Shown: positions 22,915-25,451, counted from the stretch's first letter. The stretch is 64,000 nucleotides of DNA from an uncultured bacterium (GCA_903954065.1 CAJBME010000367.1:1302-65301), one strand, 5' to 3'. Numbers and translations: made by a program. Notes: a model not told the origin generated them from the sequence alone.

Positions 22915-23161
22915 GAGGAAACAAGCCCGCCGCGCGATGGTACGGCAATCTTAAACTCCTCAGGGATTGCCTGAGAGAGGCGGTGGGCAGGTGTCCGACC
23001 CGGCGTAGGTATGAGCCGCTGTGGGTAGAGGGGCGGGCTCGAGGGTCTTCTTGATGGCGGACGGTCTCAATTTGGGCTTTTCAGCGAATTTGGTGAGAGT
23101 GAGCGAGAGCCTTCATTTCAAGGCACTTGCTGGAGTTTGGCCATTGACTCCGGATGAATCT

Positions 23162-23211
23162 GGGACACCCACATTTTTCATCGGATTGGAAGTCGAATGA
23201 GTGGGTGTCTC
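23162..23211. repeat. hairpin repeat element, copy A (diverged loop)
   Basis: GACACCCAC (23164-23172) pairs with GTGGGTGTC (23201-23209) across a 28-nt loop. Its reverse complement aligns with copy B at 45447-45495 in both arms and in the GAAAAATG block. Confidence 0.8.
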
Positions 23212-23264
23212 ACAGGTGCCATTACCATCCAATTCCCTCTATTTACCTCCAATTCTCCGAAACC

Positions 23265-23546
23265 ATGACTAAGAGGATACTCCCACGGATCATTTCTGAA
23301 AAGACCTTGGCGCATCAAGGGGCTGAAGAAGCTCTCCTCTCCATCGCAAAGGAAAGGAACCAAAAAAATAATCCATGTGTTGGGCGTGCGTTTTTTCGAC
23401 TCAATGCGTTCCGGGGTAAGCGCGTGGACGCAGCCGAGTCGCTCGGTCGGGAAATCACCCGCTTCAACGAGGAGCTTCTCAACAGGCAACCCGGACGTCC
23501 GATGTCGGCTGCGAAGTTTTTTTCTTTTCCCCGGTGGTTTTTTTGA
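23265..23546 (+). CDS. hypothetical small basic protein (very uncertain)
   Basis: MTKRILPRIISEKTLAHQGAEEALLSIAKERNQKNNPCVGRAFFRLNAFRGKRVDAAESLGREITRFNEELLNRQPGRP... Third-position GC in 23398-23490 favours this frame over the antisense ORF 23178..23552. There is no SD and no recognisable family. Confidence 0.2.
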   Translation: MTKRILPRIISEKTLAHQGAEEALLSIAKERNQKNNPCVGRAFFRLNAFRGKRVDAAESLGREITRFNEELLNRQPGRPMSAAKFFSFPRWFF

Positions 23547-23601
23547 GTACACTCAGCTCATTCTGAGAGTATGGGCATGGGCCTGACTTTTCATTTATCT
23601 C

Positions 23602-24366
23602 ATGATGACGCGTGTTTATTTTCTTCTGTTGCTGTTGGCGGCGGCCCCGCTGAGCTGGGCTCAGGGAACGCCGGCGAAACCGTTGTCGGACAAGAAGCTC
23701 GCGGATTTTACGATTGGCGAGATTATTTCGGGTGATGCGGCCGGGGAGGAAGCGTTGCGAGGGAAGGTGGTGGCTTTGGAATTTTGGGGACGTTTGTGAG
23801 GCCCCTGCCTCGCCGGCATGCCGCAGTTGGCGGCAATGGATAAGCGCTATAAATCGAAGGGGTTGCGGTTAATCGGAGTTCACTCTCAGGGAGGTACGGA
23901 CGAGGAGATTTTGGTTCCGGTGAAAAAGAACAAGGCGAAGTATTCGATTGCGCGCAGCGGTCAAAGCCCTGTTCCGTTTAACGGGATCCCGCACATGTTT
24001 GTTTTTAATCCCAAAGGGGAGCTCGTGTATGACGGGCGAACCGGTGCGGATGCGGAAAAAGTCATCAAGCGGGAATTGCGTGGGGTGACGGCCTCGGGAG
24101 ACGATGACGATGAAGATAGTCCATTTGGGCCGAAGGAGCCGGCGGCCGCCGGTCCGTTGGTCCCCGAGCGCGCATGGACCAGCGCTGACGGCCGCACGAT
24201 GAAGGCGTCATTGATCTCGCTGAAAGATCAGACAGGCAGCTTTAAACGCACGGACGGACGGACCTTTGAGCTCGCTTTGGACAAACTTTCCCCAGCCGAT
24301 CAGGCCGTGGTCGCGGAGGCCGTCAAAAAAGCCGCGGCGACTTCTCCGCCTAAACCCGAGGATTGA
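23602..24366 (+). CDS. TlpA/ResA-like periplasmic thiol:disulfide oxidoreductase, candidate selenoprotein (Sec at codon 66, TGA 23797-23799), with C-terminal SHD1-like domain
   Basis: Track ORFs 23602..23799 and 23818..24366 are in the same frame (offset 216) with only a TGA between them. Read-through gives signal peptide + ...GKVVALEFWGRL-U-GPCLAGMPQLAAMDKRYKSKGLRLIGVHSQ...IPHMFVFNPKGELVY, the thioredoxin-fold W-C-G-P-C/..MP.L signature with UGA at the first Cys. The C-terminus AWTSADGRTMKASLISLKDQTGSFKRTDGRTFELALDKLSPADQ is SHD1-like. Confidence 0.7.
23817..23838 (+). promoter_or_regulatory. candidate bacterial SECIS-like stem-loop
   Basis: CATGCCGC (23817-23824) pairs with GCGGCA(A)TG (23830-23838): 8 bp with one bulged A. 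The apical loop is AGUUG, with G at loop position 2. The loop starts 26 nt after the UGA. Confidence 0.4.
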
Positions 24367-24422
24367 TGAATCCGACGAGTGGCGTCTGGGGAAGCCCGAC
24401 GCGTGGCGAAAAGCCCGACGGT

Positions 24423-25451
24423 TCAGGCCCGCGGGTGGGCTTTATCGTAGGCTTTTTTCATTCGTTCGATGGTGACGTGGGTGTAGATCTGGGTGGTGCT
24501 GAGGCTGGCATGACCGAGCAGTGACTGCACGGAGCGGAGGTCAGCGCCATTATCGAGCAGGTGGGTGGCGAAGCTGTGGCGCAGTTTGTGGGGGGTAGCG
24601 GGGATGGGTACGCCGCTGTGGAGCAGGTGTTTTTTCAGCAAGTCATTGACGGCGCGGGAGCTGAGGCGGCTGCGGCGTTTGCTGATGAAGAGTGGGCCGG
24701 TATGGACCCCGGCTTGCTGTCGGTATTCTTGAATGGCTTTGACGGCTGGGGGGCCGATGGGGCAGAGACGTTCTTTGCGACCCTTGCCGAGGACGCGGAC
24801 TGTGTCGCTGTAGGGATCGATGTGTTCGACGTGGAGGGCGACCAATTCGGAAAGTCGCAGGCCGGCGGAGTAGAAGAGTTCGAGGATGGCGGTATCGCGG
24901 GCGGCGGCCCAGGCGGGTGCTTGTTTGGATTTGGTGGTGGTGGCGGCTGGGGTGTCGAGCAGTGCACCCATTTGGTTGACGGTGAGGACGACGGGCAGTT
25001 TTTTCTCCAGTTTCGGGAGTTGCACGGCGAGCAGTGGGTTGACTGGCCATTTTTTCCGTCGGGACAGGAATGAATAGAAGCTGCGCAGGGCGGCGAAGTG
25101 GAGGCGGATGGTGGCGCGGCCGAGCTGTTGTTTCATTTGGGCGAACAGGTAGGCGCGAAAGTCATCGGCGGTGGCGTTTTCCCAGGAGGTGAAGCGCGGG
25201 GCGCGAGTGCGGCACGTCATCAATGCGTGTTGATAATTGATGAGCGTGCGGGGGGAGACATTGCGTTCGACCGAGAGGAACTCCATGAATTCCTCGACGA
25301 GCGGGTCCGGTTCGGGGGCGGATTCGACGGCGGAAGGGGCCGTTTCCGCGGTGGGGTCCGCGGTGGTGGCGGTGACGTCAGTTGGGGGCGGCGTTGGTGG
25401 CGGCGTCGGCACGGATGAAGGAATCGTGAGTGGTGGTGGAACGGGAGGCAA
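24423..25451 (-). CDS. XerC/XerD-family tyrosine recombinase
   Basis: SAM-like N-domain (FLSVERNVSPRTLINYQHAL...FYSFL). Catalytic domain ARDTAILELFYSAGLRLSELVAL...VLGKGRKER...HKLRHSFATHLLDNGADLRSVQSLLGHASLSTTQIYTHV contains the R..HxxR..Y residues. The ~60-aa Pro/Thr-rich N-terminal extension makes the start uncertain. Confidence 0.85.
   Translation of the reverse strand: MPPVPPPLTIPSSVPTPPPTPPPTDVTATTADPTAETAPSAVESAPEPDPLVEEFMEFLSVERNVSPRTLINYQHALMTCRTRAPRFTSWENATADDFRAYLFAQMKQQLGRATIRLHFAALRSFYSFLSRRKKWPVNPLLAVQLPKLEKKLPVVLTVNQMGALLDTPAATTTKSKQAPAWAAARDTAILELFYSAGLRLSELVALHVEHIDPYSDTVRVLGKGRKERLCPIGPPAVKAIQEYRQQAGVHTGPLFISKRRSRLSSRAVNDLLKKHLLHSGVPIPATPHKLRHSFATHLLDNGADLRSVQSLLGHASLSTTQIYTHVTIERMKKAYDKAHPRA

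Follow-up and report, generated by a model that had tools for sequence, protein, structure and literature searches.

The analysed stretch of DNA (64,000 nucleotides, referred to below as the window) originates from an uncultured bacterium whose genome is represented by 377 contigs and is 96.6% complete. On its plus strand lies a reading frame that starts with an ATG at 23602, continues through an in-frame TGA (23797-23799) and ends at a TGA at 24364-24366. When the internal TGA is translated as selenocysteine (Sec, U), the 254-residue product aligns from end to end with full-length orthologues. The following features were distinguished at this locus:

23602..24366, plus strand: complete predicted selenoprotein gene of 254 codons (translation with TGA=U, end-to-end alignment with full-length orthologues)
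23797..23799, plus strand: in-frame UGA, codon 66, read as selenocysteine (the aligned codon is TGC or TGT in 27 orthologues, TGA in 38)
23817..23819, plus strand: 5' side (CAU) of an optional lower stem
23818..23820, plus strand: internal AUG (Met73) in the 5' flank of the hairpin, wrongly taken as a start by gene callers
23820..23824, plus strand: 5' arm (GCCGC) of the putative SECIS upper stem
23825..23829, plus strand: apical loop AGUUG, with G-U at loop positions 2-3 as the presumed SelB contact, in agreement with the G[G|U] loop rule of bacterial SECIS (bSECIS) elements
23830..23834, plus strand: 3' arm (GCGGC) of the putative SECIS upper stem, placed by pairing probability and covariation
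23835..23838, plus strand: 3' side of the optional lower stem (a bulged A plus AUG), placed from the RNAfold structure and pair probabilities

Two consecutive stop codons close the gene (GAT TGA TGA, with the TGAs at 24364-24369), and on a single mRNA UGA would thus serve both for Sec and, doubled, for termination.

The predicted product is composed of (i) a typical signal peptide (MMTRVYFLLLLLAAAPLSWA), (ii) a thioredoxin fold of the TlpA/ResA type and (iii) a conserved C-terminal domain of approximately 65 aa. Three Pfam families are matched above their gathering cut-offs, i.e., Thioredoxin_8 (31.1 bits, cut-off 27), Redoxin (28.1, cut-off 26.6) and AhpC-TSA (26.4, cut-off 26), and among the NCBIfam models the best match is the ResA subfamily (E = 6e-11), with TlpA models matching as well; these profile scores place the protein in the TlpA/ResA-type fold found in UxxC selenoproteins. 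Its active-site motif is W-G-R-L-U-G-P-C (surrounding peptide EFWGRL-U-GPCLAGMPQLAAMDK), in which the UGA replaces the codon of the first Cys, the nucleophile, of the CxxC redox motif, and the Cys homologues carry WG..-C-GPC at the same place. Judging by the predicted signal peptide and fold, the product is very probably an exported TlpA/ResA-like thiol:disulfide oxidoreductase. The C-terminal module (24166-24351; ER-x-WT-x-x-DG-x-x-x-x-A...F-x-R-x-DG...LS-x-x-DQ) follows a low-complexity linker, is present in Sec and Cys orthologues throughout the order, and gave no match to Pfam or NCBIfam models at E <= 0.1.

TGA is the commonest stop codon: of the 36 open frames with 300 or more codons in the window, 20 terminate with it, as does the gene described here, which rules out a genome-wide reassignment of this codon. 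Therefore, a local signal must separate the two meanings of UGA. The components required of a host for Sec decoding (tRNA-Sec, SelA, SelB and SelD) are all encoded in the genome. The tRNA-Sec gene (contig C320, 5780-5874; locus L001) was detected by Infernal with model RF01852 (59 bits; gathering score 47); its anticodon loop is CUUCAAA and the anticodon is thus UCA. ARAGORN found nothing at this locus, a miss that we disregarded. The same contig (6.8 kb) also holds one of the FG-GAP/ASPIC selenoprotein paralogues described below. Profile searches of the genome identified selA (482 bits), selD (261 bits; C314:3482-4429, locus L018) and selB (249-272 bits; contig C179). The SelB product (644 aa) comprises an EF-Tu GTPase domain (GTP_EFTU), the SelB beta-barrel and a C-terminal winged helix (SelB-wing_3). 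In solved SelB-RNA complexes it is the C-terminal winged helix that contacts the SECIS loop. The selD match lies within an open frame of 768 codons without an internal stop; this SelD seems to carry a large additional domain as a fusion and to contain no Sec of its own.

The region 23797-23840 (UGAGGCCCCUGCCUCGCCGGCAUGCCGCAGUUGGCGGCAAUGGA) reads, in codons on the plus strand from 23797, UGA GGC CCC UGC CUC GCC GGC AUG CCG CAG UUG GCG GCA AUG GAU. A preliminary description of the locus had drawn an 8-bp pairing of CAUGCCGC (23817-24) with GCGGCA(A)UG (23830-38), with one bulged A and the loop AGUUG (23825-29); this is exactly the RNAfold minimum of 23815-23840, ((((((((.....))))).))), i.e., 8 bp and one bulge at -11.1 kcal/mol. 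The five G-C pairs between 23820-24 and 23830-34 form with a probability of 0.97-1.0 in sequence contexts of 60, 140 and 260 nt, and an alternative sixth stacked pair, U23819-A23835, with a probability of 0.63-0.75; the plain 6-bp hairpin has an energy of -9.8 kcal/mol. Of the stem as originally drawn, the upper 5-6 bp are thus robust and conserved, whereas the lower extension (the CAU/AUG pairs with the bulged A) is weak (0.16-0.50) and is not kept in relatives. The G at loop position 2 is indeed seen in AGUUG, and the hairpin does lie within coding sequence, the frame 23602-24366 spanning 23820-23834. The distance of 26 nt from UGA to loop, given previously, is correct if it denotes the 26th base; counted from the A of UGA, the loop begins after 25 nt.

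Taken alone, the hairpin is only mildly unusual, because hairpins of -9.8 kcal/mol or lower that obey the SECIS positional and G rules follow 2.5% of the positions of the window (both strands, 61% G+C). Within 23815-23840 the fold was matched by 5 of 200 dinucleotide shuffles (z = -2.14). For the 64-nt stretch 23797-23860 the minimum free energy was no better than that of dinucleotide shuffles (z = 0.18), formally the outcome that the preliminary description had set against a SECIS element, in a test of little power at such G+C. A search of 23000-25000 with the 4227 models of Rfam release 15 (E <= 10) returned no SECIS family and chance matches only (SNORA38, M23 and others). Rfam is not known to have a general bacterial SECIS model, and the missing match was therefore not counted against a SECIS element. 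It is the comparative evidence, and not the hairpin alone, that is the source of strength.

Dozens of full-length orthologues were recovered when 301 genomes from the same order were searched in six frames, and a separate search of genome contigs for related loci gave one close relative only. The comparison set comprised 65 orthologues with a W-G-x-x-[U/C]-x-x-C site, among which 38 (35 distinct sequences) have TGA and 27 (26 distinct) have TGC or TGT at the first position of the redox motif. In each of the 38 UGA orthologues a hairpin occupies a constant position and takes one of two forms; three of these orthologues fold only with a bulge. A hairpin finder that applies the published bSECIS criteria and is blind to register gave a median of -7.7 kcal/mol for the 35 distinct UGA forms and chose the conserved place in 33 of them (the exceptions, L021 and L028, gave -3.8 and -1.3 kcal/mol at other places); for the 27 Cys forms the median was 0, with no qualifying hairpin in 20. 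The two sets of energies differ with p = 4e-10 (Mann-Whitney), a value that overstates the independence of these related sequences.

The same division is seen in the pairing of individual alignment cells. Among the UGA sequences, 96.9% of cells are paired in the first structure (A) for those of the first form (13 distinct sequences) and 93.5% in the second structure (B) for those of the second form, as compared with 34.6 and 46.7%, respectively, among the 26 distinct Cys sequences, none of which has a fully paired stem of either kind; the preliminary expectation that Cys homologues would not conserve the hairpin is thereby borne out. G-U is retained in the loop of 34 of the 35 distinct UGA orthologues. 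The minimum free energy of 36-nt segments compared with synonymous shuffles gave a mean z of -1.03 for UGA and -0.05 for Cys forms; this test, like that on the 64-nt stretch, has low power in G+C-rich sequence, and a statistic specific for the position and shape of the hairpin was used instead. A maximum-likelihood tree of the thioredoxin domain requires seven Sec/Cys changes, at least five of them forced by well-supported branches, so the association between UGA and hairpin does not stem from a single split. Since the sequences are phylogenetically related, all p-values given here overstate independence, and more weight attaches to the independent switches and to the compensatory pairs than to these values.

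Form A of the hairpin occurs in 16 genes, that of the window included (13 distinct sequences), and form B in 22. With the U of UGA counted as 0, form A extends from the pair G23-C37 to C27-G33 around the loop, which is AGUUG in 12 of the 13 distinct sequences and AGUUA in one. Two of its five pairs covary: at one of them G-C is replaced by U-A in three sequences, and at the other A-U (six sequences) alternates with G-C (five). None of the 500 shuffled alignments attained the covariation score, and pairing collapses in every slid register. These compensations alter the protein, changing Pro CCG/Ala GCG to Pro CCA/Val GUG and Met AUG/Ala GCA to Ile AUU/Glu GAA, as expected if the RNA and not the peptide is the conserved object. 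In L021, L028 and L029, which are close relatives, the stem contains a C.U mismatch; they fail the simple hairpin criterion and keep a bulged alternative fold.

Form B (CCAUCUG-GUU-CAGAUGG) lies 4 nt downstream of the position of form A, and the spacing from UGA to loop is 25 nt in form A and 29-30 nt in form B. No compensatory change was observed in the 22 UGA sequences of form B, in which certain synonymous positions are nearly invariant: the His codon is CAU in all 22 (Cys forms with His at this place have CAC and CAU in a ratio of 6:2) and the Leu codon is CUG in 20, with the loop codon varying among GUU, GUC, GUG and AUU. A single structure for all UGA orthologues was considered and rejected, because the two forms occupy different columns; sequences of form B pair in 28% of cells on the form-A pairs, and those of form A in 47% on the form-B pairs. 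In form A the hairpin (GCCRC-AGUUG-GYGGC) is encoded by M-P-Q-L-A/V-A and in form B by P-H-L-V-Q-M.

In the published bSECIS model (Zhang and Gladyshev, 2005; summarized in PMC13188914, Fig. 2A), an apical loop of 3-9 nt tops an upper stem of 4-16 bp, one of the first two loop positions is a G, mostly followed by G or U, the distance from UGA to loop is 16-37 nt and the energy is -7.5 kcal/mol or lower. The features that the preliminary description had given (16-37 nt, a G within the first two loop positions, a short upper stem) agree with this model (PMC13188914). The hairpin of the window fits it in each respect, having a loop of 5 nt that begins A-G-U, a stem of 5-6 bp, a distance of 25 nt and an energy of -9.8 to -11.1 kcal/mol. 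The sole departure is that the first and last bases of its loop (A and G) form no N1-N2 pair, which most of the loops modelled in that scheme possess (PMC13188914, Fig. 2A). The stem-loop is located in the open reading frame directly 3' of a UGA aligned with Cys in homologues, and it is kept in Sec orthologues and dispensable in Cys orthologues.

The SelB-dependent SECIS element of E. coli fdhF has a minimal upper stem-loop of 17 nt, with the loop GGUC, a bulged U and a loop approximately 18 nt after the UGA. Like this element, the hairpin of the window is short, G+C-rich and situated in the reading frame, and exposes G-U in its loop, and the SelB of the genome has the winged helix. Unlike it, the hairpin has the loop AGUUG, no bulged U in the stem, and a loop 25 nt after the UGA.

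As regards the protein, in 2005 a UxxC "thiol-disulfide isomerase-like protein" from the Sargasso Sea was reported as a family of selenoproteins (PMC1088965, Table 1), and a UxxC thiol-disulfide isomerase-like family is listed under cd02966 in a 2026 review (PMC13188914; example MGB1650493.1). The product of 23602-24366 shares with the latter a TlpA-like thioredoxin fold, Sec in place of the first Cys of CxxC, common Cys homologues and a downstream SECIS-like hairpin; it differs in its verrucomicrobial origin, its signal peptide and the extra C-terminal domain of approximately 65 aa (ER-x-WT-x-x-DG...). This kinship was judged by fold and motif and implies no identity of subfamily. The NCBIfam family NF041054 (WAxxUGC_long; ResA-like, "UGC-containing TlpA family") has the ResA/TlpA-like fold and Sec in the active-site region in common with the product. 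Membership of this family was rejected, the score being 14.5 bits against a cut-off of 300 and the motif WGxxUGPC (UxxC) instead of WAxxUGC.

From the comparison of orthologues we consider it highly probable that the hairpin GCCGC-AGUUG-GCGGC (23820-23834) serves a selenoprotein gene as its bacterial SECIS element, as the preliminary description had proposed; the hairpin is kept in every UGA orthologue, agrees with four published criteria and occurs in a genome with the full Sec machinery. By analogy with E. coli and Moorella, SelB would be expected to bind it and Sec to be inserted at 23797-23799. With a ribosome at this UGA, the hairpin, about 20 nt downstream, would still be folded at the mRNA entrance, and the C-terminal winged helix of SelB could bind the apical loop containing G-U. 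The bound SelB.GTP.Sec-tRNA(Sec) complex (anticodon UCA) would then be tethered at the A site, where it would outcompete release factor 2, and Sec would be inserted as the attacking residue of the U-G-P-C motif. Because translation of this mRNA stops at an ordinary UGA UGA, the hairpin would be what separates the two meanings of UGA. Since the element lies within the coding sequence, codon choice and peptide would both be constrained (P-Q-L-A/V-A here and P-H-L-V-Q-M in the sister form).

The SECIS reading is favoured by every discriminating computational test. A different origin of the hairpin, as a by-product of the conserved peptide M-P-Q-L-A-A in G+C-rich DNA, with UGA decoded, if at all, by near-cognate read-through or with the aid of a different or remoter signal, would accord with the ordinary folding energy of the whole segment, with the background frequency of comparable hairpins, and with the overlap between stem nucleotides and conserved codons. 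We nevertheless consider it very unlikely, because recoding the same peptide seldom yields such a hairpin: 1.7% of the synonymous recodings of the window's own peptide reach one as good (p = 0.017), and values below 0.05 were obtained for 15 of 35 UGA but only 1 of 27 Cys sequences. Furthermore, the peptide itself shifts in step with the pairing (CCG/GCG to CCA/GUG and AUG/GCA to AUU/GAA), the His codon CAU is fixed in UGA forms only, and the hairpin is gone from every one of the independent Cys lineages (at least 5-7), in which the domain is otherwise conserved.

Some other role of the hairpin in the mRNA, such as masking of the AUG at 23818 against internal initiation, an export-linked ribosome pause or protection of the mRNA, might be suggested by the position of this AUG in the 5' flank of the stem and its treatment as a start by gene callers. 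Such a role is highly improbable in view of the product that would begin at 23818, which would have neither signal peptide nor redox nucleophile, and of the upstream sequence, in which no Shine-Dalgarno-like context was seen. The sister hairpin, 4 nt downstream, excludes the AUG altogether, and none of these roles accounts for a hairpin confined to UGA forms when the Met codon is kept in 16 of 26 Cys forms. That the TGA is a true stop, the locus being a pseudogene or two separate ORFs to which the hairpin is irrelevant, is how public gene calls, which split or truncate the gene, would have it. This is scarcely credible for a TGA that recurs in frame in 38 genomes of several families and aligns exactly with the catalytic Cys, with both flanks under purifying selection in one frame, no other stops, and the Sec machinery present in the genome.

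Returning to the SECIS element, we consider it slightly more likely than not that, within a single orthologous family, it was re-formed in another register, each register dictating a different local peptide in the helix that follows the active site, and that it decays whenever Cys replaces Sec (5-7 times or more in one order). If true, this would provide a clean natural dataset on the co-evolution of a coding-region RNA signal with protein sequence, and would show the minimal needs of this SelB, i.e., a stem of 5-7 bp and a loop with G-U at a distance of 25-30 nt from the UGA.

A second group of predicted selenoprotein genes was found in the same genome. It consists of six paralogues of 1,200-1,400 codons, encoding FG-GAP repeats, UnbV_ASPIC, AhpC-redoxin and TPR domains, each with one in-frame TGA:

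G000:C19:9688-13929 (UGA at 11755-57) and C94:19397-23578 (UGA at 21476-78), plus strand: FG-GAP/ASPIC genes with an in-frame TGA
C44:7744-8394, C214:4566-5228, C311:11717-12394 and C320:1867-2517: further FG-GAP/ASPIC paralogues with an in-frame TGA

Within this family (loci L093-L114) the context of the UGA was read in three of the six genes and in 14 relatives, and in all of them it is GD-L-U-SF-x-WRQVV, followed 17 nt after the UGA by the hairpin GCGNCR-GGUCG-YGNCGC. The loop is invariant and the stem covaries, one pair being C-G, G.U, A-U or G-C and another either A-U or G-C. Across 23 genomes of the order, each of the more than 120 matches has TGA at this position, and no Cys form was found among them. 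The loop GGUCG at 17 nt is much nearer to the E. coli fdhF form than is the hairpin of the window. These genes show that Sec decoding is in apparent active use in the lineage and that its SelB putatively uses short, G+C-rich hairpins with a G-U loop. The 2026 selenoproteome review (PMC13188914) lists no family by these names. The paralogues were the only solid yield of a de novo scan of the genome for selenoprotein genes, which relied on an open frame on both sides of a TGA, the GC3 pattern and a hairpin, and which otherwise gave mostly noise; its strict GC3 filter excluded the 23602-24366 gene itself (GC3 0.64-0.66).

Public protein entries for the UGA forms are 176-186 aa long, start at an internal AUG (23818 in the window) and have no Pfam hit on record; clusters P0002-P0009 and others, for example, contain proteins of 182-186 aa covering 71% of the query. 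The fragments of clusters P0002-P0009 and P0013-P0026 (approximately 183 aa, corresponding to 23818-24366 of the window) are without the signal peptide and the catalytic residue. The Cys forms are full-length (250-291 aa) and named "thiol-disulfide isomerase/thioredoxin", and one truncated relative of 181 aa bears the NCBI name "TlpA disulfide reductase family protein". The misannotation of UGA forms is systematic across verrucomicrobial MAGs.

For annotation, the SECIS reading means one selenoprotein gene of 254 codons instead of a fragment of 183 aa, with dozens of verrucomicrobial orthologues equally shortened, and the verrucomicrobial selenoproteome would gain a predicted exported, Sec-dependent thiol:disulfide oxidoreductase. 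Both the mechanism and the protein family are known, and the understanding of Sec insertion is unchanged. The 65 genes form a comparative test set for the needs of SECIS elements, in which two registers are represented along with covarying pairs, synonymous sites that are frozen, and recurrent switches between Sec and Cys. What remains of most interest is the apparent rebuilding of the SECIS element in a second register within one family, together with its apparent repeated decay on the change from Sec to Cys. One Cys form, L085 (G240:C4:171678-172513), has a weakened form-B hairpin (CCAUUUGGCCAAGAUGG, -4.2 kcal/mol) and the His codon CAU, and may represent a recent Sec-to-Cys replacement with a decaying SECIS element.
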